The notes: generated by a model not told the origin, from the sequence alone. DNA of 64,000 bases from an uncultured Christensenella sp. (GCA_948466185.1 CAOJZM010000002.1:66573-130572); one strand, 5' to 3'. Positions 7,401 to 44,762 are shown, numbered from the stretch's first letter. Numbers and translations are program-made.

Positions 7401-9951
7401 CAAAGACCTGTGCATTTGCAATAAAGTTATATTGTTTTGTTTCGATATAATTTTTTATTATCTTAACAAAAGGTAAAAGTTCAGATATATTAAAGTAATC
7501 TCCGCTTAATTCAATGCTTGAAGGATAATCGTTTAGAGTAAGTTCGCAATTTAAATCCTTTGTGGTAATAGTTATTCCATTAACTTTATCTTGAGCGTAA
7601 CTTACTGATGCACTAAAGTTTGTCAGAGTAAGCTCAAGAGCCGAGTCAGTTAATTTAATATTAAAATCCTTTAATAGTTGTTTGAAGTCGATATTTGATG
7701 CTGAATTTTGTATTTCTCCAAACTTTCCTATTAAGCCATTAAGCATTTCTGATAAATCAATGCCAAATTCTTCTTTAATAAAGTTTGTCACTGTGTCGAT
7801 ATCTGAAATAGCAAAACTTAACTTAAGATTTGCAAGTTCAATAAATAGGGTGTCATTAAGGAATTTAACTTGAATTTTCATTCCGTCGATTTTGGTTTCT
7901 GCAAAAATGGAAATTCCAGATTTGTCATAATTGATAGAACCCACAACTTGATATTTATCGTAATTTAGATTAATACTTGCATAGACTGTTTGATTTTCGA
8001 TAAGGTTCAACACAGAAGATGCAATATTTAAAACTTTTGTGACAGATTGATATTGTGTGGTGTCGATTGTTGGAAGTGTTATGTTTTCAGTGTCAGCGTT
8101 TAAATCAAGTGAGGCACTGAAGCCATTTATATTTAAACTAAGTCCATTAAGATATTCATCATAGGTTATTGTCAGCAAGGAATCGTTGTAAAGAAGAATT
8201 GAAATGCCTCCATCAATTTCTTCAAGTTTTTTGATGAACAGAGGGTTCAGATTTTTATCTAGAAGGATTTTAATTTGCTCTATCAGTTCATCCATATTAA
8301 ATTCTTGGAAAGTTATATTAAATGAGCGTGAGAGGAAATCTTTAATAGAGTCAATGTCGTCAAGACTTGCATAAAGTTTTAAATCTTTAAAGCTTAAATA
8401 TACCGAATTGTTGATGATGTCAATGCTGAACTTTTCTTGATATATATAGGTTTCAAGGTGAGCATTAAAACCTTCTTTATTAATTACTGTAAAGTAGAGG
8501 TCAAGCTTTTCATTTTCATTTAAGTTTAGGGTTGCCTTGCCCGTAAATCCTTCAAGTCTACTTGTATTTATTGCCGCATTTATTGTAGGGATTATTCTCG
8601 CAAGATCTATATATGTTTCAGCGTTTGAAGACAACATGTAATCTTGTGGCTGGGTGACAGTCAAGGCTGCACTAACTCCAAAACCTTCAAAACCTATCGT
8701 AGAAAGATTAGTATTGTTAATTCCAAAACTTATCATGCCGATGTCTCTGAGGGTAAGGATATAATTATTTCCATGTTTATTAAACTCTTGAATAATACTT
8801 AAATCAATTTCAGAAGGATTTGTACTGTCTTGTTTATTATTCCCAAAGTCGATTTCGGAAATAACATCAAAGAGGTTGTTATTTTTAAGTGCATCAAGGA
8901 TGGCAACTATTTGCTCGACAGGAACATCTAAACTAAATTGATTTTTTAAAAGATTAGAGATTAAATTGACATCGCTTAGTGCAAATTTTAGGTATATATT
9001 GCCAAATTCAAAGTATATGACATTATCCTTAGCAATAAAACTGAAAGGGGTATCCATAACTTCAGTTTCAAACTTTGCTGACATATCAGTAAGGTTTGCA
9101 CTGAAATTTCCATTGAGTTGCAAATTTTTATATGCAAGGTCTAAGTCAAAGGATATTTTATCCTGATCAATGTAGTTAAGTACTGCTCCTGCAACGCTGA
9201 AAAGATTGCTTGCGTCAATAAATTCTGATGATTCAGGCTCTTCAACTTCAACAACGTCTGGGTAGGATAGGGTGGAGGAGAGGGCTATACTTGTGCCCTC
9301 GGAAATGGTTGTTTTTGGAAGCAGCAACTCTTTAACGCTGTAGTTAAGGTCACATATAAGTTGTATTTGACCAACAACAGGAACCTTGATATTAAGGGTA
9401 ATGGTGTCTTCTCCCTTGGTTTCAGTCAGGTCAGACAACATTCCAAGAATCGTATTAGGGTCAAGGGAAGAAAGGTCAAAACCAAGGTCAGGGATTTCAA
9501 TTTTAAGTATTGATAAAATTTGATTTAAAGACTGCCCTATGTTATTGGTTTCAATTTTAAATTTTCCATTTAAAACTTCGATATATGCCGTTCCATTAGT
9601 ATAGCTAAACAAAATATCAAAACTTTGCTCTTCTAATACAACGGTAAGTGCGCCTTCAGTTGAAAGATTTTCAAGCCCAGAGTCAAGGTCAAGCCTTGCG
9701 TCAAGTATAATATCAAAAGCACTTGTTGGAGTTTCAACATTCACATCTAGGTTCACATCAAGGGCTTTGACAAGTGTTAAACTGTCAAATATGTGGGAAA
9801 TTTGTGGAGCTATATATATTTCTTCATTTCCTCCATCGGGTTTAGCATCATTTGATAAAAAGATTATGCCTACCGCTGTGCCAAGGGTGATAAAGATATA
9901 GACTAAAGCATAGCCGATAATTTTGCTGATTTTTTTAATAGCTTTTTTCAT
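4420..9951 (-). CDS. Giant membrane-anchored surface protein: N-terminal TM, about six ~200-aa beta-rich repeats, C-terminal InlB B-repeat (Flg_new)-like domains
   Basis: N-terminal basic + hydrophobic anchor; repeated N-x-(I/V/L)Y-x-x-F-x-N/D-LKL..D motif; C-terminal repeats with FxGWY/F...TIYAKW typical of Listeria-Bacteroides repeats. Confidence 0.75.
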   Translation of the reverse strand: MKKAIKKISKIIGYALVYIFITLGTAVGIIFLSNDAKPDGGNEEIYIAPQISHIFDSLTLVKALDVNLDVNVETPTSAFDIILDARLDLDSGLENLSTEGALTVVLEEQSFDILFSYTNGTAYIEVLNGKFKIETNNIGQSLNQILSILKIEIPDLGFDLSSLDPNTILGMLSDLTETKGEDTITLNIKVPVVGQIQLICDLNYSVKELLLPKTTISEGTSIALSSTLSYPDVVEVEEPESSEFIDASNLFSVAGAVLNYIDQDKISFDLDLAYKNLQLNGNFSANLTDMSAKFETEVMDTPFSFIAKDNVIYFEFGNIYLKFALSDVNLISNLLKNQFSLDVPVEQIVAILDALKNNNLFDVISEIDFGNNKQDSTNPSEIDLSIIQEFNKHGNNYILTLRDIGMISFGINNTNLSTIGFEGFGVSAALTVTQPQDYMLSSNAETYIDLARIIPTINAAINTSRLEGFTGKATLNLNENEKLDLYFTVINKEGFNAHLETYIYQEKFSIDIINNSVYLSFKDLKLYASLDDIDSIKDFLSRSFNITFQEFNMDELIEQIKILLDKNLNPLFIKKLEEIDGGISILLYNDSLLTITYDEYLNGLSLNINGFSASLDLNADTENITLPTIDTTQYQSVTKVLNIASSVLNLIENQTVYASINLNYDKYQVVGSINYDKSGISIFAETKIDGMKIQVKFLNDTLFIELANLKLSFAISDIDTVTNFIKEEFGIDLSEMLNGLIGKFGEIQNSASNIDFKQLLKDFNIKLTDSALELTLTNFSASVSYAQDKVNGITITTKDLNCELTLNDYPSSIELSGDYFNISELLPFVKIIKNYIETKQYNFIANAQVFEQKDITYNATVGLQVDLTNKLQFYGNFKMTGKMEMDAEASVYEDFLYVDYNGLKLKMNTNDLNEILVIIMKMIGIDPSILPFLQDIANGNDFDINSLKASGLNNINGNSLSIIELFKSISVSGNTLEIILDGSKISSNERAENMPITLVTDGNKLVSLDIKNLYTGVSNEEHFNLHIDFAKFNGVTTPDTSKNYVDISGANELIKAMINTAEIQDFEISGSLKLKMEVVGINIDWNIPVNIKLKLIDGKPEIMIVLGTKGSSIPVVPGVNDDVPYKFGNTTSGIYAGLNRILTIYYKDNYVYFYRHEEVPVFASSNRIYEKKLKADVDTVFSDVLYYVQYGLGFSDSIINAIRETLSKEHDVDLGNVIKSFSVNNNEKYTIELNMEELTGDSKMGTMSIGLGLINNQSTGNKNYIGLITFNMNMPLASGIQLDMNSEDLSLINIGETIDFEGLHQYINTYEYNENVEMDAYNGEWKQSKEREFTVTFVTNTQESIPSVTGKTGTTFTLPTYSTFEQSTVTDKDVLQFVGWYTSSKFTKGTEYKEGVITNKDITIYAKWDCIESYRTVEFYVNNIKIDSQYARVGTKLKDVNFDKTYDVEVNNQKITMEFAGWFDEDGYSITYIPTYSDKLYAKFEAVNTVTKYTLSFDTGVGAKKDSVEVYNSYSTANITADYDTSDFIINKNGVSTTYSFAGWFLDPEFNSPFNDIMPEHNQTIYAKWNIIKITHERVLKIIDANNEVYTTRIEPDGKITLPSTIKVNENTQWYLDSDYTCQVNLPDTMPNSDLTLYIRNKYNLTYTYYTKEMLADGKFTHTSHTVTLELYQDQSFTLPEQNAYEFDTYKDGHLYKRMYYTFDGYTDNGVKYTYTTMANHDLSLISNVYEDFKNYYLVTFDTRQYRTNSQAGSLVYPNGHWASEASFTPEAEWILDGTTLDLTQAKYRPTMKGYLTDFGFDKKTFTATSWGTSAWENGTTGGSGITAYTVTGDVTLYACWQK

Positions 9952-33170: not shown

Positions 33171-34205
33171 ATGAGTGATAATTTTAATTTAGATATGATT
33201 GATAAAACCTTTACAAACTATAAAAAGGGGCAAATGTTTGATGGCGTGGTTGTTATTAAGCGAGATGATGGTGCGATTTTCAACATTGGCGGAAAAAATG
33301 ATGCCTTTATACCCAAGGATGACTTTGATGATTTTGACGGCTTGAAAATAGGGGATAGGTTTAAAGTTGTAATAACCAATAAAAAGAATGAAGAAGGAAT
33401 GATTGAGGTGTCAAAGCGTCTTGCTGATGACAAAGTGCTTGCAACCCAAAATGCACAGAAACTCAAACTGGGCAGCACTTTTAGTTTTGTTGTTGCTGGC
33501 AATAGAGATGGCGGGCTTGTTTCGCGAATGGGAGATTATGAAATCTTTATTCCTGCTGATGAAATCTTTGTCGATGGAGCAAAAGATGTAAGGCGTCTTG
33601 TTGGGAAACAGTTTGAAGCCACGGTTACCGAAATCAATCGTGAAGATAAAGCTATAATTGGAAGTATAAAGCTTCTTTCTGAGCAGATAAGAAAGACGAA
33701 TGAAAGTTTATTTTGGAATTCAATCTTTATCAATAAGCTTGTAAAAGGGAAGGTTAAAAAGATTATGCCTTATGGGGCCTTTGTTGAGGTGGACGGGATT
33801 GATTGTTTTCTGCATATTTCAAACATCTCATATTCTCGCCTTTCAAACCCAAGCGAAGCGATAAAAGAAGGGGAAGAATATACCTTCAAAGTGATTGAAC
33901 TGGACAGGGACAATAAGAAGGTGGCTTTAAGCCTTAAAGCGTTGCAAGAGAGTCCAAATGCGCTTGCAATAAGAGAATTGCAGGTGGGGCAAACTTACAG
34001 CGGAACGGTGGTAAAAATACTTAAATTTGGAGCGATTATAAAACTTGAAAATGGAGCGAGCGGGCTGTTGCACATTTCAAATGCCACAGAGGATAAACAA
34101 AAACAGATTTATGAAATTGTCAAACTTGACCAAAAAGTTGATGTGATTGTGTTTTATAAAGATGAAGAGGAAGAAAAGGTGTCTTTTGCTCTTGTAAATC
34201 AGTAG
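33171..34205 (+). CDS. rpsA: 30S ribosomal protein S1-like (four S1 domains)
   Basis: Tandem S1 repeats (YGAFVEVDGIDCFLHISNIS, FGAIIKL..GASGLLHISN); usual position after plsC. Confidence 0.8.
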   Translation: MSDNFNLDMIDKTFTNYKKGQMFDGVVVIKRDDGAIFNIGGKNDAFIPKDDFDDFDGLKIGDRFKVVITNKKNEEGMIEVSKRLADDKVLATQNAQKLKLGSTFSFVVAGNRDGGLVSRMGDYEIFIPADEIFVDGAKDVRRLVGKQFEATVTEINREDKAIIGSIKLLSEQIRKTNESLFWNSIFINKLVKGKVKKIMPYGAFVEVDGIDCFLHISNISYSRLSNPSEAIKEGEEYTFKVIELDRDNKKVALSLKALQESPNALAIRELQVGQTYSGTVVKILKFGAIIKLENGASGLLHISNATEDKQKQIYEIVKLDQKVDVIVFYKDEEEEKVSFALVNQ

Positions 34206-34279
34206 AATCAATATAATGTAGGTAATATTCGCATACTTCATACAATATTTGGTGGTAGTATGCGTAAGTTGCCACAAAT

Positions 34280-34318
34280 GCTGATGTTGCACAGTTGGTA
34301 GTGCATTCGATTCGTAAT
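34280..34318 (+). pseudogene. 5' half of host tRNA-Thr(CGT) (attL side)
   Basis: GCTGATG-TT-GCACAGTTGGTAGTGC-A-TTCGA-TTCGTAAT then abrupt switch to AT-rich sequence; pairs exactly with the 3' half at 43625-43670. Confidence 0.92.
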
Positions 34319-34410
34319 AATATACTTTACCATTTGTTTTGTAGCACCTAATATATTATAATATAATATATTAAGGCACTTTTTGAGATAAAATTTTAAC
34401 CTTTAAAATC

Positions 34411-34426
34411 AAAAGTGTAATAGAAA
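34411..34426 (+). repeat. Putative integrase arm-type site, left end
   Basis: AAAAGTGTAATAGAAA, identical to 43460-43475. Confidence 0.65.
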
Positions 34427-34472
34427 TGTAAAAAAGGTTGTAAAAACTTAACTCTGGGGTTATCCCCAATAT

Positions 34473-34548
34473 GCTGATGTAGCACAGCAGGTAGTGCGAC
34501 GCATTCGTAATGCGTAGGTCGAGAGTTCGAACCTCTCCATCAGCTCCA
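34473..34548 (+). tRNA. Element-borne complete tRNA-Thr(CGT)
   Basis: GCTGATG TA GCAC AGCAGGTA GTGC G ACGCA TTCGTAA TGCGT AGGTC GAGAG TTCGAAC CTCTC CATCAGC T CCA; all four stems pair. Confidence 0.96.
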
Positions 34549-34568
34549 AATTATTTTTAGAGGTTGTA

Positions 34569-35462
34569 ATGAAAATAAATCGAAAATGGGAAAGTATAAA
34601 CCTGTCTGCTTGGATAGTGTCAGTTATTTTACTAATACTATTTTTTGTTTTGGCTATGCTATCTCATTTTAAAGTTAGACTGGAAGAGGATATAGAAAAT
34701 ATTTTTTGGGGACTGACAGGTGTCTTTGCAAGTTTTTTCTCAGCTTTCTTTATAGCATGGGTGGTTGATAAACAATCGAATGATAGCGAACAAGCAAGAA
34801 TAGATAGGATTAGGTCTTATTATTTAGATAAACCTATAAATAAAGTTAAGAGTTTTCTTTCGCTAATCACGAGTCCTTGTGAAGATTATTGTGGAAATTT
34901 CAAACCTTATTTTATCGCTGGCAAATTAAATTTTGATAATCTTATTTGGAATTTTAATTTTGTTTTCCAATTAAAGTATTTAGTCAAGAAAAAAGATTTA
35001 GTTAATTACAAAAGAGAAATAACAGTGGATAAAGGCATAAGCCAAGTGATTTCAGGTAGCGAAGTAGTATCACATGTGGATATTATTTTAGAAGACTTGA
35101 AATCTATTGCAGATTTATTTGAAAAACTTTCAAAAGATATGGAAGAACAAAATATTTTTAATAAGATAGAAATTTTTAATAAGCAAGAAATTTCTATGGC
35201 AAAAGAATTGTATCAGCGTTATGTAAGTAATAATGATTTAACAAAAATTATGCACTATGAATTATTTGACGATTTTCTAAAATCATTAAATGCTATTGTT
35301 GATTATTATGATATAGAAATTGAAGAATGTGCTGTGGGCAATATGCTTAAATCACTTGTTAAGTCATTAGACAAAGTTCCAAATATGATCAAAGACGTAG
35401 AAGATAAAATAGTTGCAATTAGAGAAAGTGCAGAAGAATACATTAAGTCAAAATTTATATAG
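34569..35462 (+). CDS. Element cargo: 2-TM N-terminus plus helical soluble domain, unknown function
   Basis: GAGG RBS 20 bp after the tRNA; two hydrophobic helices in the first ~65 aa. Confidence 0.65.
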   Translation: MKINRKWESINLSAWIVSVILLILFFVLAMLSHFKVRLEEDIENIFWGLTGVFASFFSAFFIAWVVDKQSNDSEQARIDRIRSYYLDKPINKVKSFLSLITSPCEDYCGNFKPYFIAGKLNFDNLIWNFNFVFQLKYLVKKKDLVNYKREITVDKGISQVISGSEVVSHVDIILEDLKSIADLFEKLSKDMEEQNIFNKIEIFNKQEISMAKELYQRYVSNNDLTKIMHYELFDDFLKSLNAIVDYYDIEIEECAVGNMLKSLVKSLDKVPNMIKDVEDKIVAIRESAEEYIKSKFI

Positions 35463-35507
35463 TTTGCAACACATAAATAGGACATTAAATATTAATGACC
35501 TTTTTTA

Positions 35508-36047
35508 TTATACCTTTCTTGGTCGTATACTTTCAATATCGGGCAAAAAATTATCATCAAAAGGTTGTGGGTTATCTTGTGTTGGCTGTTCTTCTTGCTT
35601 TCGTTTTTCGCTCGCTTGTGCTTCTTCAAAGGCTTGTATGAGGTTGTTTGTATAGTCTTTTGAAAATGGGTTAGTAACATATTCAATGTTTTGAAACTGC
35701 AACTCTTGTCCTTTGTAGTTCTCAGTTTTAAAGATTGTCAAAAAGCAATAAACATATTTATTCAAAAAAGTTTTATCAAAGTCAATCTCTATGTTTTCAT
35801 CTGGTTTGTAGCGATAATTAATTGCTTTTCTCAATTTGTTGTAACGCCAATTAAACTTGCCTTGTGGATGCACATGAAACTTATTATCACATATCAAAGA
35901 GCCTTTATGGCTACCACTAATAAGTTCAATTGTGATTTCAAATTGCTTTGCACTAATATCTAATAAATCAATTTTAACTATTCTCGCCAAGACACCTTTT
36001 TCTTCAATAGGTGTCTTGGTTATTTCTCTTCCTAATAATTCAAACAT
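35508..36047 (-). CDS. Putative phage-type single-stranded DNA-binding protein (DUF669-like)
   Basis: GGAGG RBS before the ATG at 36047; beta-rich core and acidic Pro/Gln tail (QPFDDNFLPDI); family call is inference. Confidence 0.45.
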   Translation of the reverse strand: MFELLGREITKTPIEEKGVLARIVKIDLLDISAKQFEITIELISGSHKGSLICDNKFHVHPQGKFNWRYNKLRKAINYRYKPDENIEIDFDKTFLNKYVYCFLTIFKTENYKGQELQFQNIEYVTNPFSKDYTNNLIQAFEEAQASEKRKQEEQPTQDNPQPFDDNFLPDIESIRPRKV

Positions 36048-36048
36048 A

Positions 36049-36642
36049 TTAAATTGCCTCCTTGTATTTATTTTGAAATTTCTCAATTTTTTTAAGTTTA
36101 TTGAAAAGTTTATTTTTGGTTGATTGAATATCATCAGTGTTTGCTAATGAATTAAAGATTAAAAAGTCGTCATGTTTATATTTGGTTGTTTCTTGTTCTT
36201 CTTGGCTTACTTGCTTTTTGAATAGCAGTAAAAAGTCTATTATCTCGCTAACATTACAAATTGGGTTACAAATCGGCTCACAATACAATGGCCATAGATA
36301 TTTCATAGCAAAGTTTTTCATAAACATATGGTCTTGTTTTTTGCTACCAGTTTTGATTGCTATATAAATAATCATTTTACCATCATCTAAAAATCTTGGC
36401 CATATACAAAAGTATGAGTCAGTTAAAAGTTCCAAAGCGTCATCAATAAAACTTTCTCTGCACATAAAGTATTCAGCCCATGAGTTAGATTGAGAATCAA
36501 TCTTTATCAAAGTTGCATTTTCAAGTATTGGGTTAATGATTTTTAGTTTATTGATTTCATTGTCAATATAACTAATCAATTCGGTTTTAGTAAAGTACTC
36601 ACTTTTAGGACATTGAGCGAGGTCCATTTTTGTATTTTTCAT
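36049..36642 (-). CDS. Hypothetical element protein
   Basis: AAGGAG RBS; ends 1 bp before the next start. Confidence 0.6.
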   Translation of the reverse strand: MKNTKMDLAQCPKSEYFTKTELISYIDNEINKLKIINPILENATLIKIDSQSNSWAEYFMCRESFIDDALELLTDSYFCIWPRFLDDGKMIIYIAIKTGSKKQDHMFMKNFAMKYLWPLYCEPICNPICNVSEIIDFLLLFKKQVSQEEQETTKYKHDDFLIFNSLANTDDIQSTKNKLFNKLKKIEKFQNKYKEAI

Positions 36643-36736
36643 ATAAAAATCTCCTTAATATTTTTCTAAAAATTGACACTAAAAAAGCATGTAGAGTGAA
36701 AATGAACCCTATTAGTTTTTTAGTTATAAAGTGATA

Positions 36737-36776
36737 TTGACAACGCATATCAAGTCAGTTATAATATGCGTGTCAA
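36737..36776. promoter_or_regulatory. Palindromic promoter site; + strand consensus promoter aimed antisense into the integrase gene
   Basis: TTGACA(36737)-17-TATAAT(36760) inside the inverted repeat TTGACA(A)CGCATAT...ATATGCGTGTCAA. Confidence 0.6.
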
Positions 36777-36800
36777 AATTAAATGATAGTTAATAAATAA

Positions 36801-38213
36801 TTAATTAACACCACATAAGAAATTATTGTATGTCATAGACGCTTGTTCTTGTTGTCCTTGTAAAACATGCGTGTAGACTTGAAGTGTGAACGCTTCACTG
36901 GTATGACCTAAAATTTGAGATACAACTTTGATAGGTACACCACTATTAAGCATCAATGTAGTAGCAGTGTGGCGTATGCTATGACATGGTACATGCTCAA
37001 ATCCATGTTTTATTTCAAATTTGGTTACCCATTGTGTGAGCGTGCAAGGATTAATGACATTGCCATTTTCTTGTAAGAATAAAAAGTCAGTATCAGCCCA
37101 TAAATCTCCATGCAAAAGTTTTTGTTCTTGCCACCAAGTTATATATTCATTCAAAATTTCTGCTAACATTTTAGGCATAAACAATGTTCTTTTTGATGTC
37201 TTTGTTTTTGGACTTTTAATTTTAACACCAAACTGACTGCCAGCATAAATGCAATTTCTATTGACTGAAAGTGTATTGCTATTAAAATCAATATCATTTT
37301 TGCAAAGACCTGCAATTTCGCCTTTTCTTAAACCTAACATTATTAAGATTGATAGTACTGCTTTCTTTCGTAAATCTTGTTCGTTTAAAATGCATTGAAC
37401 AAATCGCTTTGCTTCATCTTCGCTAAATATAGTTTTCTTTTTAACATTGCCAGTAAGTTTTTTAGTGTATTCTTTGGTTGCATAATTGTGATCTATTAAA
37501 AGTCTACGCTTTGCTTCTGATAGTATCATAACAAGTGTGGTTCTAATTCCAGCAATTGTTGCTTTTGAATATCTACAACTTGTTGTCGTTATATCAAAAT
37601 ATTTGTTTATAGGAACTCCAAAATATTTACAAATTGATTTTGCTGTTGTCATGCTTACTTGATTTCCAACATTGCTTGCCATTCTCAAAGTTAGTCGGTG
37701 AATTCCTATTTGTTCAGCAATCTCATGTTGGTATAATTCACTTTCTGTTATGAGTTCCTTAATTGATTTCTTAACGATAACAATTTGCTTTTCATATGTG
37801 TTCGCAGAAAGAGAATCATAAAAGTTTTGAATTAAGTTTGGTCCAATATTTTTAAGTTGATAATCTTTGAAGAAGGGGATTATAACGCTCAAATGTTGCT
37901 TTGCACCTTTGTAATAAGTGTAAGAGTCTGGGTTTCTAATCAAAATGCTATCAAGCCATTGATTAGCAAAGTCCACAAACATAATATTATTTTCAATTGT
38001 GCGAATACCTTTTGAAAGTTTTTCAACTTCTTCCTCAAATTCATATTGTGCTTTCTTTAAAAAGTGTTCGGTTTCTTTTTTAGAAAGGTTTGGTTGTACC
38101 TTAATGGTTTTTGTATAGTTTTTATGCTTGCCACTATATGTGTCTTTTCCACTGCAAATAAGTCGGTAACTGATTAGTTCGCCATTTTTGTTTTTTCGTT
38201 CTTCTACATACAT
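36801..38213 (-). CDS. int: Tyrosine integrase with inserted XRE-like HTH
   Basis: Catalytic residues GLRKGE (R), KSPKT (K), HSIRH (HxxR), LGHT, VYTH (Y); arm-binding-like N-terminus; internal HTH segment. Confidence 0.93.
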   Translation of the reverse strand: MYVEERKNKNGELISYRLICSGKDTYSGKHKNYTKTIKVQPNLSKKETEHFLKKAQYEFEEEVEKLSKGIRTIENNIMFVDFANQWLDSILIRNPDSYTYYKGAKQHLSVIIPFFKDYQLKNIGPNLIQNFYDSLSANTYEKQIVIVKKSIKELITESELYQHEIAEQIGIHRLTLRMASNVGNQVSMTTAKSICKYFGVPINKYFDITTTSCRYSKATIAGIRTTLVMILSEAKRRLLIDHNYATKEYTKKLTGNVKKKTIFSEDEAKRFVQCILNEQDLRKKAVLSILIMLGLRKGEIAGLCKNDIDFNSNTLSVNRNCIYAGSQFGVKIKSPKTKTSKRTLFMPKMLAEILNEYITWWQEQKLLHGDLWADTDFLFLQENGNVINPCTLTQWVTKFEIKHGFEHVPCHSIRHTATTLMLNSGVPIKVVSQILGHTSEAFTLQVYTHVLQGQQEQASMTYNNFLCGVN

Positions 38214-38416
38214 ACTGGCACCTCGCTTGGTTCACTATTTAGAAATCTAACAAGGTCATCAAAGTTAACATGCAATTTATTTCCACTCATAAAATGCTTA
38301 ACTAAATTTTGTTCACATAGTTGCCTAATATACCACTCGCTTATTGAAGTGCCTTCATCAAGTTTCAATAGTTCTTTTTTACATTCAGCAACAGTTCTAA
38401 TTTTTGGTATTGACAT
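38204..38416 (-). CDS. Excisionase-like small winged-helix protein
   Basis: 70 aa, overlaps the int start; ISEWYIRQLCEQNLV..F.SGNKLHVNFDDL pattern typical of Xis-type proteins. Confidence 0.7.
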   Translation of the reverse strand: MSIPKIRTVAECKKELLKLDEGTSISEWYIRQLCEQNLVKHFMSGNKLHVNFDDLVRFLNSEPSEVPVCM

Positions 38417-38749
38417 AATCTTTTCTCCTTTAATTCATGGTTATTATAATTCGGTGTTTTTTAAAAAGACACCACTGGGCGAAACTTTTTTCAAAAAGTT
38501 TCAAATTTTTTAATCAAGCATTTCATTTCTTAAAGTGGAATAAGAAACTCGGTAACTTTGGTTAACAAATTTCAACTCGTGTTTATCATAATTTCACCTC
38601 GCTTTGTTTTCTCTTGTGGGTTGCAACCTTATTGAGATGCCTCAATTTTATGATAAACTAGTTCGAAAGTAAAATCTGTGTCAAAAAACATAAGATTTGG
38701 TTTGTTTTTATGGCTTTAAAGTTGTATAATGTATTTTAGAGGTGTAAAT

Positions 38750-39418
38750 ATGGGAAATCAAAAAGTTATAATATTAGAAGATAAAGTCAAAAAAGAAGAA
38801 ATTATAGAAGAAGAGGAGAAACACAAATTAACAGATGGTGAATTAAAAGAAAAGTTTATAACTAAATTAGAAAGTTTAATGAAAAAGGCCAAGATCAAAA
38901 AATATAAAATGGCTGAATATATGAAAATTGATAAACAAACTTTTTATAATTGGTTTGGAAAGAAAAAAGAAGTGCCTAATTGGATTATTCAAATGTATCG
39001 CATGAATGTTTATTTGTATAAACAAAAAAAATTAAATTATAACCCACTTATGCTTTTTAATGATAAGTTTCAGCAACTACAAACTCAACAAATTGAATCA
39101 TATAAAGAAGTTTCAAAAGTGAATATGAATTACATGATAAAAATGGATAAAAACACTACACTTTATTTTGGTAGGAGTAAACATGGCAGTATTGATTTTA
39201 GATTGCTTTTTTCAAATGGTAACTTATATGACTTGCTTTATGACTTAAAATTAAATTATTGTGATTTACCACCTAATGAAAGGAATAAAGGTATAGGTAA
39301 AAATTCTGTGAGCAGTATGAAAGATAGACTTTTTGAATTTTTTACTGAATTTATTATTACTCATAAAAACGAAAGAGGTAAATTTAAATATTTAATGAAA
39401 GATGGTTGGTTTGAATAG
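38750..39418 (+). CDS. HTH-containing regulator, divergent from xis-int
   Basis: KKYKMAEYMKIDKQTFYNW HTH; GAGGTG RBS; terminator hairpin near 39428-39461. Confidence 0.65.
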   Translation: MGNQKVIILEDKVKKEEIIEEEEKHKLTDGELKEKFITKLESLMKKAKIKKYKMAEYMKIDKQTFYNWFGKKKEVPNWIIQMYRMNVYLYKQKKLNYNPLMLFNDKFQQLQTQQIESYKEVSKVNMNYMIKMDKNTTLYFGRSKHGSIDFRLLFSNGNLYDLLYDLKLNYCDLPPNERNKGIGKNSVSSMKDRLFEFFTEFIITHKNERGKFKYLMKDGWFE

Positions 39419-39548
39419 TAAAAAATAAGAGTCTCCAAAAATGACATTTGGGGACTCTTTTTGTTTGGTTAATATATTTTATTAGAAAGATTATTTGTGT
39501 GTCTTTGGGGTTACTCTGGTGTCTTCTGGTTGAATTGTGGGGTTATGG

Positions 39549-39716
39549 TCATAAAGATAAAAGAGAGATTAGTTCTTTAATCTTTGCCATATTGTGAGTT
39601 TCAAGTGCGATTTGAATTGTTTCGTTCAATTTGTCTTTTATTAGGTTTGACAAGATTTCTATCAAATCATTTTCAAATGTTTTTGTGTCATTAAACTTTT
39701 TTTGTTCCATATTCAT
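39549..39716 (-). CDS. Small hypothetical protein (55 aa)
   Basis: AAAGGAG RBS before ATG; helical composition. Confidence 0.45.
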   Translation of the reverse strand: MNMEQKKFNDTKTFENDLIEILSNLIKDKLNETIQIALETHNMAKIKELISLLSL

Positions 39717-39951
39717 TGCTCCTTTTAAATTTGGCTCGCCATGATTATTATAATTCGCTATTTCAAAAAAGGACAACAAGTGGAGCAAGTTTACATAAAA
39801 AATAAAGTATTCCAAATTTTAATTCTGGGACACTTTATTAGCAAGTATATATATTTTATTAAACAAACTATTTCCGTTAATTCTGGGTATATCTGGTTAA
39901 CTCTGGCGATATTCTGTGCATAAAAAAAAGACTATTCAATTTGAAATAGTC

Positions 39952-40248
39952 TTATTTTTTGCTTTCATTTAATATTTTTTGTTTGCTCATAAACTTAACA
40001 AGAGAATTGCACATTTTAATCAATTTTTCTTTTGACACAATTCTATATGTTGCTATACAATCTACTGCATTTTGTAATATTAAATTTTTCATTACAAGGT
40101 CAGCGTCATCATAACTAATATTATATAATCTTTGTAGAGCAGTGATAGATATAATATCAACATTTCCTAAATCTTTAATATCAAGTTGTGGGACTTTCTC
40201 TTTAATGGTTATTTTAATTTGTTTATTATCATCTTTTACAAGTTTCAT
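39952..40248 (-). CDS. Small protein with FtsK-gamma-like winged helix
   Basis: ISITALQRLYNISYDDADLVMKNL resembles the FtsK gamma consensus SxSxLQRxxxIGYxxAxxLxxxL. Confidence 0.55.
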   Translation of the reverse strand: MKLVKDDNKQIKITIKEKVPQLDIKDLGNVDIISITALQRLYNISYDDADLVMKNLILQNAVDCIATYRIVSKEKLIKMCNSLVKFMSKQKILNESKK

Positions 40249-40340
40249 ATTATTTGCTCCTATCTCTTTTAATGCATTACAATAAATTTAGCTTAATAAA
40301 AAAGACCACATAACTGTGGTCGAATTTTTAATATAGTTTG

Positions 40341-42011
40341 TTATTTAATTTCTGATATTATTTTATCAACTGCTTTGTTGTATGTTTGTTCATCAATAAC
40401 ACCTAATTCTTTCAAGTGTTTTAATTCATTGATTTTGCTTTCTATACTATTTGATGGAGTATATTGAGATTTCATTGATTGTTGTGTTTGTGCAAATTGT
40501 GGATTAGGTTGAATATATTTAGAATGACCAGCATGTTCTGCATATTTATTTTGATCAACAAAGTTAGGTAAGCATACAACAACAATTTCTAATACAAATG
40601 ATACTATATTTCCACTAAGTATTGAGAAAACGATGAAACAAATTTGCTTTGATTTTGTATTTAAAACGCCTTCTGGTCTAACAGGGCTTTTAATAAGTAA
40701 TGCACTAAAAACTATTGTACAAACTGATGTTGCAAGAAATATAATTCCAGGAATTAAGAAAGGTAAAGCAAAAGAAATCAATCCTGCAGCGGCAAATGCT
40801 CCTGCTAATATTATACCCTCAATAAATAGGTATAATGAAGTTGCTAACATTCCAGTTCCAGATACCACTCCGAATATACTAGCAACTAATTCTAATATTC
40901 TTTTTGTTTTGTTATAAATCATATTTTTTTCTCCTTTTATATACTTGTTTTTTCCGCTGATTTTTATATCAGTATTTATTGAGTTATTATTACTTGCATT
41001 TTGCTCATCTTCAATCTTGATTGATATTCGATTTTCAGCAATATCTAACTCTAACATTTGAAATGCTTCTTTTATGCTTTCTGCACCTTTATAAATATAA
41101 TCTAAAAGTAGTTGTGCATACTTTGCTTGCGATATTGAAATAATGTTTATCTTGTAAATTTGATTATAAATATCTGCAATTTTTCTATGGGTTTTATTGA
41201 TATTGTCAACATATTCCTTGAGTAAGATAGGGTATTGTTCGACATTATATTTTTTGTTTTCTTCAATCTCATTTAATGCTACTTTATAATTTAATTGGTC
41301 TAATAAAAATTTAGTTTTATGTTTAAAGATTAATACAACTCCAAGACCTATCACAGCAATCGAAAAAAATGAGAGTATACATTCTAACATTGTGTTAAGA
41401 CCATAACTGCCAATGTTTATACAAGCACATAGAAGAACGGGACAAATACACATAAAAGTTGTAGATAAAATTGACACATACTTTTTAGAAAATTTGTCAA
41501 TAAACTTTTGTTCTTTTTTTGTAATTTCAATATTATTTTGACTAATAATTTTTTTACATTTTTTTGTTGTTGCAATTTTATCCAACAAAACTAATCCAAT
41601 AGTAAAAATTATAATAGCAATTATAGTTATAAAACGACTTAACATAAATAGAATGCTATTTTGTCCATCTAAATATTCCCTACAATTGTCAGCAATAGAT
41701 AAAAGAATCCAACTTACAATATATATAGAAGAAGATAATATAAACATAATAACACTTAAAATATTATTTTTCTTTTTAGGTTTTTTTGGTGGCTCTTCTG
41801 ATTTCTTTTCGGGTTTTGAATCTTCAACTTTTGTCTTTTCGTCAATAGATTCTATATCAGCAATTTTGACTTCTTTATTCCAATCTATATTTGGGTCTCT
41901 AATATCATAAATTGCTGATTTACTCAATTCTTGTAATTCAATCCAGTGATTCGCTACTTGCTTTAACTTTTCTTTGGTTTCTTGCAAATTAGTTTCTTTG
42001 GTTTGTGCCAT
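40341..42011 (-). CDS. Multi-TM membrane protein with C-terminal SHOCT-like domain (apparent two-gene fusion)
   Basis: Two TM clusters; terminal INELKHLKELGVIDEQTYNKAVDKII; internal AGGAG + in-frame ATG at 40922. Confidence 0.65.
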   Translation of the reverse strand: MAQTKETNLQETKEKLKQVANHWIELQELSKSAIYDIRDPNIDWNKEVKIADIESIDEKTKVEDSKPEKKSEEPPKKPKKKNNILSVIMFILSSSIYIVSWILLSIADNCREYLDGQNSILFMLSRFITIIAIIIFTIGLVLLDKIATTKKCKKIISQNNIEITKKEQKFIDKFSKKYVSILSTTFMCICPVLLCACINIGSYGLNTMLECILSFFSIAVIGLGVVLIFKHKTKFLLDQLNYKVALNEIEENKKYNVEQYPILLKEYVDNINKTHRKIADIYNQIYKINIISISQAKYAQLLLDYIYKGAESIKEAFQMLELDIAENRISIKIEDEQNASNNNSINTDIKISGKNKYIKGEKNMIYNKTKRILELVASIFGVVSGTGMLATSLYLFIEGIILAGAFAAAGLISFALPFLIPGIIFLATSVCTIVFSALLIKSPVRPEGVLNTKSKQICFIVFSILSGNIVSFVLEIVVVCLPNFVDQNKYAEHAGHSKYIQPNPQFAQTQQSMKSQYTPSNSIESKINELKHLKELGVIDEQTYNKAVDKIISEIK

Positions 42012-42178
42012 ATACACTCCTTGATACAAGTAATTATAACATACAATTCGATAAAAGTAAACAATATTGAGAATATTTCAATATTATATTGAAAATGCGT
42101 GTATTTTACCAGTTTTGTTTCAAGTAGTATAAGTTGCTCCATATTTTATAATTAAGATAGCATTTTGGAGGTTAAAAT

Positions 42179-42478
42179 ATGGATAAACAAGACTTGATTT
42201 TTAAGATAAGCACTATTCGCACAAATGCAAACTTATCTGCAAGAAAGTTATCACTAAATATTGACATGCACGATAGTTATATAAATAGGCTTGAAAGTCA
42301 AAAAGATTTCTTGCCAAGTATGGAAGTGTTTTTTAAGATACTTGAAGAATGTAATTGTTCTGCTGAAAAGTTCTTTTATCATGACTACAACAACTATGAA
42401 AGTGATATGGAGATTTTAGAAAAGTTTAAGAGTTTGAGTGAAGATAAGAAAAAAGCATTATTAGAGTTTATAAAATAA
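42179..42478 (+). CDS. XRE-family HTH regulator
   Basis: IRTNANLSARKLSLNIDMHDSYINRLE...PSMEVFFKI; GGAGG RBS. Confidence 0.85.
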   Translation: MDKQDLIFKISTIRTNANLSARKLSLNIDMHDSYINRLESQKDFLPSMEVFFKILEECNCSAEKFFYHDYNNYESDMEILEKFKSLSEDKKKALLEFIK

Positions 42479-42493
42479 AGTAGTCGGTTTTGA

Positions 42494-43291
42494 CTACTTA
42501 TTTTTTTGTGGCTTATGAAAATACTGCTTGTCTATGCAAGTGATAATTTCGCCAGTGTTTCGGTCAATAAACTTATGTTTATCACTAAAACAATAAAGAT
42601 TGTTGCCAGTTTCTTTTATGCTGTCTTTATTTGCTTTGTCAAGTATATCACAAACACCTTGCTTATTTGTGGTTATCTCATGCTTATTTGAAATTGGAAA
42701 ATCTTTGCTATTAGATATGATTTGCACAAATTGTGGTAGTTTGGTGTATGTGGGGTTATCTGGGTTTATATTTTCGGTTTTAGGCTGTGTTATATAATCA
42801 ATAACACCATAAGGCTCAGTTGCTATTTGAAAGTCTATAAAACCTTGTTTCCAACTCTTTTTAACCCATGTTTTAGTAAAGTTTTTTGGTATTTCATTTT
42901 TAAACATTAAAATCAAATGTATATGAAAATGAATGTTATCTTCAAAAGATTCAATGGCACGAATATAAAAGCACTTACCAAAGTTTCTTTTGATACATAA
43001 CATAAAAGATTGAAATTTCTTTTTTAATTCAGTTCATAACATTATATTTGAAGTAGTTAAAGTTAAAAAGACACATTTATTAGGAACTAAATCAAAGGTA
43101 TATAGTTTGTTTCTAAACTGCTTTAATGTCTTTTCATATTTTTTGGTTGTTATAAAAGGATTGTCTTTGTTTCGTGTTTTAGTGGGTAGTACACGATTTT
43201 TAACAATAGCACCTTTAAAATGATTATAATTTTTTTGAATTACTATTCTATCATTATTATAGATAGTAACTTTGTATTGTTTATTTTTCAT
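42494..43291 (-). pseudogene. HUH rolling-circle replication initiator (Rep) interrupted by one in-frame TGA
   Basis: Motif I (FLTLT) in the 43034-43291 ORF; motif II (HFHIHL) and motif III (DYITQ) in the 42494-43003 ORF; same frame, separated by TGA plus 10 sense codons. Confidence 0.8.
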
Positions 43292-43454
43292 ATTGATTCA
43301 TCTCCATTTATTTTGGTTTATCTTTTTTATTGTTAGAAGTATTGATTTAAATTTTGTTTTATGCTATACTGATAAAAGTTTTAAGAAATGTTCACAAAAA
43401 TGTATATATATATTAAAACAAGTATAGAGTTGGGCATTTAGTAATACGCTTATG

Positions 43455-43482
43455 GTGTAAAAAGTGTAATAGAAAGTGTAAA
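43455..43482 (+). repeat. Putative integrase arm-type sites, right end
   Basis: Three tandem GTGTAA units including AAAAGTGTAATAGAAA shared with the left end. Confidence 0.65.
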
Positions 43483-43624
43483 GAATGTTACACGAATTAC
43501 AAAAGATAAATTGAATAAATAGAAATTTTAGGATTTATTCAAAATATCATTTGGGTTTACACAAGATACAATTTATTAGTACTGTAATTTGGAGTTAAAA
43601 AGATTGATTTTGAATTAAAATATT

Positions 43625-43670
43625 ATTCGTAATCGAAAGGTCGCGGGTTCGATCCCCGCCATCAGCTCCA
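43625..43670 (+). pseudogene. 3' half of host tRNA-Thr(CGT) (attR side)
   Basis: ATTCGTAATCGAA-AGGTC-GCGGG-TTCGATC-CCCGC-CATCAGC-TCCA; TCGAA pairs with TTCGA of the 34280 half. Confidence 0.92.
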
Positions 43671-44762
43671 TATGAACTAAGTAAAAAGTCTTTTTTGAGA
43701 GGAGATAAAATGAAAAAAAATTATAAAGCCTATGAAAAGCCAAAAATGGAACAAGATAGATTAGACTTGCAAACAAAAAACGGTTCAAAATTTACTCAAA
43801 ATATTATTGAGAAAGCATTTGAAGAAATTCCTAAAGATGCCGTTGTAATGGATTTCGGTTGTTTTAATGGAAACTCAACGAAGACCTTTTTTAGTCAAAA
43901 TGAAAATCAATGCAAAAGAATTATAGGTTTAGATTTTGTTGCTGACGCAATAGAGCAAGCAAATAAAGATACGCATGATGGAAAATATAAATTTATTTTT
44001 GCCGATTTAGAATCTTCTGATCTTGAAAAAATAATTTCAGATTGCTTAAAAGTGGAAGGGAAAAAATATATAGACATAGCCTTTATTTCCTATGTGCTTT
44101 TACATTTAAAGAAACCTGAAAAGTTATTGAAGTTAATTGCAAAGTTTTCTGATTGTAATACAGTTGTTATAATTAAGGATACGGACGATGCATTAAAAAT
44201 TTGTTATCCTGGAAACGAGATTTTACAAGAAGAAATAGAGGTGTATTCAAGACTTCGTTTAATTTCTAGATATAGTGATAGATTTATTGGAAGGAAAATT
44301 CCTAAAATGCTTATGCAGGCGGGATTCAAAAATGTCGAGTGTTTTCAATCAAAAGGAACAACTTTGGGAAAAACTTTAAAAGAACGTAGAGATCAGTATG
44401 AAGTTGATTTTTCATATCGAGAGTATCCGGATTTTCCAGAAGTAGACACAGATACAACTGAATTTCAGGCATTAAATAAAAGAAATAAGGAATTATTAAG
44501 AAAGATAAAAAAATTATTTGAAAAAGATGATTTCTTTTATTTAAAATTCACATTTACATTTATCGCAAAAAAATAATGTGTCGCAAAATCAAATGCGAAA
44601 ATCAAAAGCAGACATTATGGAGTGCAAGCCCACAAAATTTTGCCCACAAAATTTTATTTGTTTTTGGCAAAACAAAATCTGCAAATTTCATTTGCAGGTG
44701 GAGCCTATCAGCGTTCTCATTCGCTCACTGAACAGCTCCATATAATCTAAGTAAAAAGTCTT
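43663..44762. mobile_element. One-gene cassette bounded by a 30-bp direct repeat of the tRNA 3' end plus trailer
   Basis: CAGCTCCATATGAACTAAGTAAAAAGTCTT (43663-43692) vs CAGCTCCATATAATCTAAGTAAAAAGTCTT (44733-44762), 28/30 identical. Confidence 0.7.
43710..44576 (+). CDS. Class I SAM-dependent methyltransferase
   Basis: VMDFGCFNG motif I, IIGLD, DIAFISYVLLHL. Confidence 0.85.
   Translation: MKKNYKAYEKPKMEQDRLDLQTKNGSKFTQNIIEKAFEEIPKDAVVMDFGCFNGNSTKTFFSQNENQCKRIIGLDFVADAIEQANKDTHDGKYKFIFADLESSDLEKIISDCLKVEGKKYIDIAFISYVLLHLKKPEKLLKLIAKFSDCNTVVIIKDTDDALKICYPGNEILQEEIEVYSRLRLISRYSDRFIGRKIPKMLMQAGFKNVECFQSKGTTLGKTLKERRDQYEVDFSYREYPDFPEVDTDTTEFQALNKRNKELLRKIKKLFEKDDFFYLKFTFTFIAKK

Follow-up and report, generated by a model that had tools for sequence, protein, structure and literature searches.

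Probable break-and-replace integration at tRNA genes by small non-phage elements in a genus of uncultured gut Clostridia

What becomes of a tRNA gene when the element integrated in it restores it at neither end? This question is raised by a stretch of 64,000 nucleotides from an uncultured Christensenella sp. (GCA_948466185.1, CAOJZM010000002.1:66573-130572; hereafter the window, always at its full length), where the two halves of a host gene for tRNA-Thr(CGT) lie about 9.3 kb apart and a complete gene with the same anticodon, here called the spare, lies between them. An initial annotation made from the sequence alone had interpreted this arrangement as break-and-replace integration, in which an element that has only a minimal core (9 bp) in common with its target brings along an entire tRNA gene as a substitute. 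Our analysis supports this reading, to which we give a probability of roughly 85%: the 9.3 kb between the halves would be an integrative element that is not a phage, and rather plasmid-like or mobilisable, which follows the logic of the tRNA-dependent lysogeny of some temperate phages, and the same strategy would be used throughout one genus of small-genome gut Clostridia. The reading starts from a split gene, junctions that do not rebuild it, a spare gene, a gene content without phage structural genes and the same layout in relatives.

The 5' half of the host gene comprises the acceptor arm, the D arm, the 5' arm of the anticodon stem and the loop, and the 3' half comprises the loop, the 3' stem arm, the variable loop, the T arm and the acceptor with its CCA (coordinates in Table 1). 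The sole sequence common to both halves is ATTCGTAAT. Joining the halves in silico by slicing gave a perfect 76-nt tRNA-Thr(CGT), called by ARAGORN with every stem paired, as the initial annotation had described. It had also noted that neither junction rebuilds a tRNA. Indeed, ARAGORN scored neither of them as a tRNA, and Rfam gave no match at the left junction (attL) and a partial tRNA below threshold at the right one (attR, 23.3 bits for a gathering score of 29). The shared core has 9 bp, i.e., the 7-nt anticodon loop and its closing pair. In attL it is followed by AT-rich arm DNA and not by the 3' half of a tRNA, unlike in the integrations that restore their target.

Counted from the left junction, the spare begins approximately 155 bp into the element; it has the orientation of the split gene and is the only gene for tRNA-Thr(CGT) in the genome (14 contigs, rated 98.55% complete). 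Aligned with the rejoined host gene it differs at 17 of the 76 positions. By our reading of the alignment, eight of these are in the anticodon stem, four in the T stem, one in the T loop and two in the D loop, and the others are positions 9 and 26. Both the anticodon and the T stems stay paired, so the compensatory differences reported initially are real, and the anticodon loops of the two genes are identical in the window. A repeat search recovered both half-to-spare pairs at 80% identity. As a control, we applied the upstream-half test to all 38 tRNA genes of the genome: apart from the spare it flagged a single gene, a further genuine case on contig C7, and the combination of half and spare is therefore not due to chance.

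The extent of the element was delimited with the help of relatives. Genome G014 carries a sister element, with 64% identity to ours in the integrase, 94% in the Rep and 100% in one regulator. It is located between the two halves of a tRNA-Lys(CTT) gene, with the core ACTCTTAAT, the same left arm, and a complete tRNA-Lys(CTT) 166 bp inside. An alignment of this arm from five genomes, with one element each (three at tRNA-Thr(CGT), two at tRNA-Lys(CTT)), has 85 invariant columns out of 174, and these take in an AT-rich block and three GTGTAA-like repeats. Since the arm adjoins different host 5' halves in the five genomes, it is DNA of the element. Precise excision would restore the host gene. The gene for the S1-domain protein upstream of the split gene is syntenic with tRNA-Thr(CGT) at 10 of 11 loci of relatives. 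In G118 it is followed by an intact tRNA-Thr(CGT) gene (82% amino acid identity for the S1 protein) that has three differences from the rejoined host gene. This is the kind of relative, with an intact locus after rpsA, that the initial annotation had anticipated, and it represents a natural intact target.

The integrase family was found in 54 of the 154 genomes of the genus (71 matches at E ≤ 1e-40). Beyond the three loci already studied there were 68 matches, from which 60 loci were fetched for the survey, the eight omitted being partial matches of at most 318 amino acids. A co-oriented complete tRNA gene was present within 4.5 kb past the 3' end of the integrase at 38 of the 60 loci. At 32 of these 38, it was preceded by a 5' half, defined as a sequence with the anticodon of the complete gene, at least 0.8 identity to the 5' part of a library tRNA, an end in the anticodon loop, and a position 117-241 bp upstream. 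The initial annotation had expected integrase homologues beside a tRNA gene with the anticodon of a split host gene, and these loci fit that expectation. Matching 3' halves were present at the far end in, e.g., L126, L127, L130, L135, L136 and L180. The targets in the survey are the genes of Thr-CGT, Thr-GGT, Arg-ACG, Arg-CCT and Ile-GAT, to which G014 and L020 add Lys-CTT. A scan of genome contigs showed the same layout in metagenome-assembled genomes of uncultured Clostridia or Christensenella.

The anticodon of the target tracks the integrase phylogeny: on a quick tree, from which three rows were dropped for stops or short length, it changes 16 times for a mean of 29.1 after shuffling, and none of the 200 shuffles gave a value as low. 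Elements with integrases 96% identical carry different spares, with the anticodon kept. The constancy of the pairing between target and spare over six isoacceptors argues for selection on complementation. The genes for tRNA-Arg(CCT) fall by reading into at least four structurally different types, which occur in the role of target and of spare alike (L002-L012 and L185-L198, loci that also cover the variation among tRNA-Thr(CGT) genes given below). At L137-L141 (in G151, G150, G161, G060 and G141), a clade of near-identical integrases of the family has no tRNA within 4.5 kb.

Some loci carry more than one element. On contig C1 of G161, a second element of the family is inserted in the spare of the first. 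The order is host 5' half, left arm of element 1, 5' half of its spare, left arm of element 2, complete spare and integrase of element 2, core and 3' half of the spare of element 1, and integrase of element 1. The spare of one element thus served as the target of another member of the family. Five further genomes have two integrases of the family approximately 3-9 kb apart on one contig, and L025 shows two successive 5' halves. At L022 (position 19585 of the reverse complement), an attP-like junction joins the right end of an element, a core and the left arm of a second related element, which indicates a tandem insertion at tRNA-Arg(ACG).

The other gene flagged by our control belongs to a second element in the same genome as the window but outside it (G000 contig C7:25760-39400, L199), at tRNA-Thr(GGT). 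Three 5' halves are stacked there at intervals of about 100 bp with a complete gene after them, and 13.5 kb away there is one 3' half. The stems of this 3' half fit the outermost 5' half when stem complementarity is read by eye; ARAGORN called a tRNA for each of the three 5' halves joined to it, so joining does not discriminate between them. The C7 element encodes an integrase only 25% identical to that of the window, a MobL relaxase, a Schlafen-type helicase, a D12 methyltransferase and a YpsA/SLOG protein. Given its unrelated integrase and its MobL, the strategy extends beyond one integrase family and is used by a bona fide mobilisable element.

We propose the following mechanism. The element would have a lambda-like attP, in which arm repeats flank the 9-bp core, and its integrase would recombine this site with the only tRNA-Thr(CGT) gene of the host, at the anticodon loop; that gene follows the one for the S1 protein. 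Because attP would share just the 7-nt loop and its closing pair with the target, the gene would stay split at both junctions. The element would compensate for the loss with its own complete tRNA-Thr(CGT), placed beside attP, 155 bp inside attL and in the orientation of the split gene, and this spare is presumably expressed and charged. Close linkage would make spare and attP travel together. The process is iterated, with new elements breaking the spares of resident ones.

Classical integration would explain the locus differently: the complete gene at 34473 would be the regenerated host gene, and the 5' half at 34280 the relic of an older event. Most tRNA-targeting elements do restore their target (according to the available text of PMC4383910), and relic fragments are present at this locus in relatives, e.g., the two 3' fragments in L005. 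Yet, the 155 bp that separate the complete gene from the 5' half are element DNA common to relatives that target tRNA-Lys(CTT). The outer halves fit each other perfectly and match the intact native gene of G118, and within the complete gene each half is co-adapted to the other one rather than to the outer halves. This explanation is very improbable. It is scarcely credible that the arrangement results from a chimeric join at one or both junctions. The window does come from a metagenome-assembled genome in 14 contigs, and the contig of a relative (L019/L125) breaks exactly at the core, but a 16,984-nt contig from run X5, which belongs to another study than run X1, goes from the 5' half through an element about 97% alike to the 3' half. 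An independent contig with the same junctions makes misassembly very unlikely, and the layout found at 32 of the 38 surveyed loci comes from other genomes.

Two further explanations concern the spare itself. The initial annotation had suggested that its anticodon and T stems were recoded, either against self-targeting or against tRNA-cleaving toxins. In the window, four of the five pairs of the anticodon stem differ between host gene and spare; the identity between host half and spare is often low (0.39-0.65 in many Arg-CCT cases); and the spare of L127 has a loop one base off the core (CTCGTAA instead of TTCGTAA), which could block strand exchange. However, G002, the closest relative searched (86% amino acid identity for the S1 protein), has no integrase of the family at its tRNA-Thr(CGT) site (its best integrase matches, at 25-27% identity, are on another contig), and its native gene differs from the spare at only 3 of 76 positions, with a flank after the gene like that after the 3' half of the window. 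The stems of the spare are therefore inherited natural variants and not an element-specific rewrite, and they may have been captured from a host of a sister lineage or passed to one. Across the genus, tRNA-Thr(CGT) genes differ from one another at 2-24 of the 76 positions. The initial annotation had held that an element-free relative with this tRNA as its native gene would speak against its reading. G002 is such a relative, and it undoes the recoding idea only: the spare is still borne by the element, because the 155-bp left arm beside it is element DNA shared with the relatives at tRNA-Lys. In two relatives, L173 and L180, spare and split gene have the same 5' half, and in two others, L130 and L158, their 5' halves are 97% identical. 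In run X6, an element about 97% alike abuts 21 loose letters on each side that we read as a third version of the stem, which suggests that the target is not defined by its stem sequence. In G161 a spare was used as a target, and with identical loops in host gene and spare, nucleases that read the loop are not evaded. Selected recoding is thus quite improbable; the short and fixed distance between attP and spare may instead keep the element off its own spare. The spare could also be a dispensable passenger. The anticodon UGU can read ACG, tRNA-Thr(UGU) is present in the genome, and ACG accounts for 8.4% of the Thr codons (4.85 per 1000 codons in 339 long open reading frames, ORFs), in which case the spare would not be what makes integration viable. 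Yet, a complete gene with the same anticodon accompanies attP in 32 of the 38 surveyed relatives, over six isoacceptors including the Lys-CTT of G014; the targets include Arg-ACG, usually the only reader of CGU, CGC and CGA; and spares differ between elements with integrases 96% identical while the anticodon is kept. We consider a passenger role unlikely, if worth keeping in mind.

Several results weigh against break-and-replace integration as we propose it. With tRNA-Thr(UGU) present and ACG rare, this particular spare may be helpful or advantageous rather than essential. A strict scan of 34150-34650 found no promoter on the + strand near the spare; between the 5' half and the spare it found neither a promoter nor a terminator on that strand, and transcription of the spare by read-through from the host tRNA promoter is a possibility. 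No tRNA was within reach of the integrase at 22 of the 60 surveyed loci. Six of the 38 loci with a tRNA lacked a clear 5' half with our half-finder, which combines an anticodon-loop anchor with global alignment and is blind to halves with an anticodon other than that of the spare: L157 is borderline (0.74), the contig of L125 stops exactly at the core, and L131, L171, L176 and L179 show no 5' half. In the contigs of four runs (X1, X3, X5 and X6), compared with 33500-44500, we found neither a joint that skips the element nor a back-joint, so the empty site and the attP junction that the initial annotation had in view did not turn up; contigs drop rare forms, which makes this search uninformative on mobility. 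The 18-nt word of the left junction had 4 matches in a viral collection and 59 in a metagenome collection, all 63 of which were unrelated by blastn. Finally, the Rep gene has an in-frame TGA, found at the same codon in the 94-99% identical copy of G014 (L013). It could be a shared defect or a programmed read-through, and the autonomous replication of the element may be impaired.

Table 1. Features of the split tRNA-Thr(CGT) locus and of the integrative element (positions in the window)
Feature	Position	Strand	Remarks
Host flank, S1-domain (rpsA-like) protein, 344 aa	33171-34205	+	Pfam S1, E 5.7e-40
5' half of split tRNA-Thr(CGT)	34280-34318	+	last 9 bases (34310-34318) are core copy 1, attL
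Left arm (putative P' arm of attP)	34319-34472	+	conserved AT-rich block; three GTGTAA-like repeats at 34414-34445; hairpin at 34454-34469
Spare, complete element-borne tRNA-Thr(CGT)	34473-34548	+	ARAGORN; Rfam RF00005, 70.1 bits (gathering score 29)
Variable cargo ORF, 297 aa	34569-35462	+	hydrophobic N-terminus by reading; no family match
Backbone ORF, 208 aa	35508-36134	-	84% identical to same-place ORF of the G014 element; no Pfam/PHROG family
Backbone ORF, 197 aa	36049-36642	-	32% identical to same-place ORF of the G014 element; no Pfam/PHROG family
Tyrosine integrase, 470 aa	36801-38213	-	PF00589 Phage_integrase, E 8.6e-25, 87.9 bits; PF14659 SAM-like N-terminal domain, 29.3 bits
ORF overlapping integrase start, 70 aa	38204-38416	-	71% and 45% identical to same-position ORFs of the G014 and G016 elements; no family match
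Helix-turn-helix (HTH) regulator, 229 aa	38729-39418	+	weak Pfam matches to HTH_26 and CI-repressor HTH, below cut-offs
Small backbone ORFs, 88 aa and 98 aa	39549-40248	-	83% and 96% identical in the G014 element; no family
Variable cargo, 562 aa, membrane protein by reading	40341-42029	-	weak DUF2207_C, 30 bits (cut-off 33)
HTH_3 regulator, 99 aa	42179-42478	+	Pfam HTH_3, 30.1 bits; 100% identical in the G014 element
Rolling-circle (HUH) Rep	42494-43291	-	one frame with in-frame TGA at 43034-43036
Right arm (putative P arm of attP)	43450-43624	+	three GTGTAA repeats at 43454-43482
3' half of split tRNA-Thr(CGT)	43625-43670	+	first 9 bases (43625-43633) are core copy 2, attR

The gene content of the element (34319-43624), whose GC content is somewhat below that of its left flank, agrees with the initial description of a small non-phage carrier with an HUH Rep. 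Searches of its ORFs with Pfam and PHROGs revealed no capsid, portal, terminase or tail family, except for one weak match to a tail chaperone (E 0.0026) on the 297-aa cargo ORF; a phage-satellite lifestyle is compatible with this content. When the Rep was searched with an X in place of the TGA, it matched REP_ORF2-G2P (PF23343) with 34.9 bits for a cut-off of 27.8, the match spanning the stop, and Rep_1 with 32.1 bits, just under the cut-off of 33.2. The integrase fits the lambda type: it has a catalytic domain with the R-H-R-H/Y residues and a core-binding SAM-like domain. R296, H411, R414, H437 and Y447, which we take to be its catalytic set, are invariant in a three-way alignment. The GTGTAA-type motif is not enriched over the window as a whole (12 matches for 11.3 expected). 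Because the repeats cluster at both ends of the element and stay conserved in relatives, they are probably the arm-type integrase sites of a lambda-like attP. The 70-aa ORF is, by its position, a candidate excisionase.

The two cargo genes, both of which we read as coding for membrane proteins, vary between copies. In the place of the 297-aa ORF the X5 copy has 792 other letters, and the ORF is unmatched in the element of G014. The middle part of the 562-aa ORF is replaced in the X5 copy, and in G014 the whole ORF gives way to a 682-aa BspA-type leucine-rich-repeat protein with Listeria-Bacteroides repeats (L013, 13599-15647). The backbone of the element therefore shuttles surface proteins. 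Directly right of the 3' half lies a gene for a SAM-methyltransferase (43695-44576) that was not found with this query in five relatives; for this reason synteny was anchored on the S1-protein gene and on a short flank downstream. The region downstream of the split tRNA may itself be variable.

Other tRNA fragments were observed at the same genes in relatives. In L005 (G024:C24), the final 32 nt of tRNA-Thr(CGT) occur twice more downstream of the intact gene, at 2488-2519 and 2687-2718, approximately 200 bp apart. These copies resemble fragments displaced by classical integrations, or a repeat array, at the same hot spot. In L014 (G016:C2, around 7600-7640), and in L020 upstream of its 5' half, there are additional 5' fragments of a tRNA that stop inside the D loop, and the upstream flank of each is duplicated. 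Such fragments hint at a different type of event at these genes.

The nested and stacked loci lead us to a tentative proposal, which we hold as possible and a little less than even: break-and-replace elements might drive the turnover of tRNA genes in these genomes of roughly 1 Mb, each newcomer splitting the resident copy, often the spare of an earlier element, and installing its own. If so, the host's only gene for several anticodons would be borne by an element, and the stacks of dead 5' halves would record a succession of elements. The native tRNAs of sister species, such as that of G002, would share recent ancestry with spares, in either direction. The spare would also protect the left end of the element from loss other than by precise excision. 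The nested and stacked loci also make it possible to read off how one locus was invaded several times in succession, and suggest a route by which the sequence of a tRNA gene can change abruptly between sister species.

In this genus the layout is the rule rather than a curiosity, with the integrase family in 54 of 154 genomes and the layout at 32 of 38 tRNA-bearing loci. Standard island finders look for a regenerated tRNA and a displaced fragment, and so would put the ends of such elements in the wrong place or overlook them, and genome annotators would count the element-borne tRNA as the host's own. A cassette of approximately 2-4 kb with attP, integrase gene and tRNA could be a compact integration tool for genetically difficult bacteria, a use that has also been proposed for mycobacteria (PMC10865867).

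The literature we searched, which included few subscription journals, contains no account of non-phage elements that split a tRNA gene and supply a whole replacement, and none of nested replacement or of a spare with a fixed place next to attP. Integrative mobilisable elements with rolling-circle Reps or MobL relaxases are a recognised class. The element of the window resembles them in its small size, its integrase and regulators together with a Rep or relaxase, and its variable cargo, and the C7 element in its MobL. The classical islands and prophages that restore their tRNA (e.g., those of Islander, PMC4383910) likewise use a tyrosine integrase and a tRNA target, and have a displaced fragment at the far end. 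In such elements, however, the tRNA segment that is displaced directly adjoins the core, and the gene is regenerated at one of the junctions, whereas here neither junction is a tRNA. The prophage Lj965 of Lactobacillus johnsonii is closer in some respects: it is an element of Firmicutes that is reported not to rebuild its target and to encode possibly complementing tRNAs (PMC10865867, PMC3714127). According to its description it is, unlike our element, a prophage with several tRNA genes. More generally, tRNAs of prophages can complement a disrupted gene (PMC3714127), and Mesorhizobium prophages have been mentioned in this connection (PMC12429752).

The closest match is the tRNA-dependent lysogeny of actinobacteriophages (Guerrero-Bustamante and Hatfull, mBio 2024, PMC10865867), described for Fionnbharth (K4), cluster L, CQ2, DL and Gaia. 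The initial annotation had pointed to compensation by an element-encoded tRNA in some temperate phages, and this study is where it was named and demonstrated. According to its available text, tyrosine integrases recombine at cores of 8-17 bp in tRNA genes that are not rebuilt, the cognate tRNA carried by the phage is required for viable lysogens, as shown by experiment, and target and spare switch together between close relatives; the authors suggest a wider occurrence, citing Lj965. The element of the window shares with these phages the tyrosine integrase, an attB in a tRNA gene, a core within that size range (9 bp), the lack of a rebuilt tRNA, the carriage of a tRNA with the same anticodon, the joint switch of target and spare among relatives, and putative arm-type sites flanking the core. 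It differs in its carrier: instead of a tailed temperate phage, we have here an element of 9.3 kb that encodes a rolling-circle Rep but lacks structural genes. The tRNA of Fionnbharth, which overlaps with gene 37 of the phage, was shown to have a promoter of its own, whereas the spares described here lie at a fixed 117-241 bp from the core, in the same orientation. The need for the spare is experimental in the phages and inferred here. Nested or serial replacement and stacked 5' halves occur in the genus studied here, and the available parts of PMC10865867 contain no mention of them. The mechanism itself is thus known from phages. Our results extend it to non-viral integrative elements of uncultured gut Clostridia, where what is new is that the carrier is not a phage, that attP and spare form a fixed module, that six isoacceptors are involved across the genus, and that replacement is serial.

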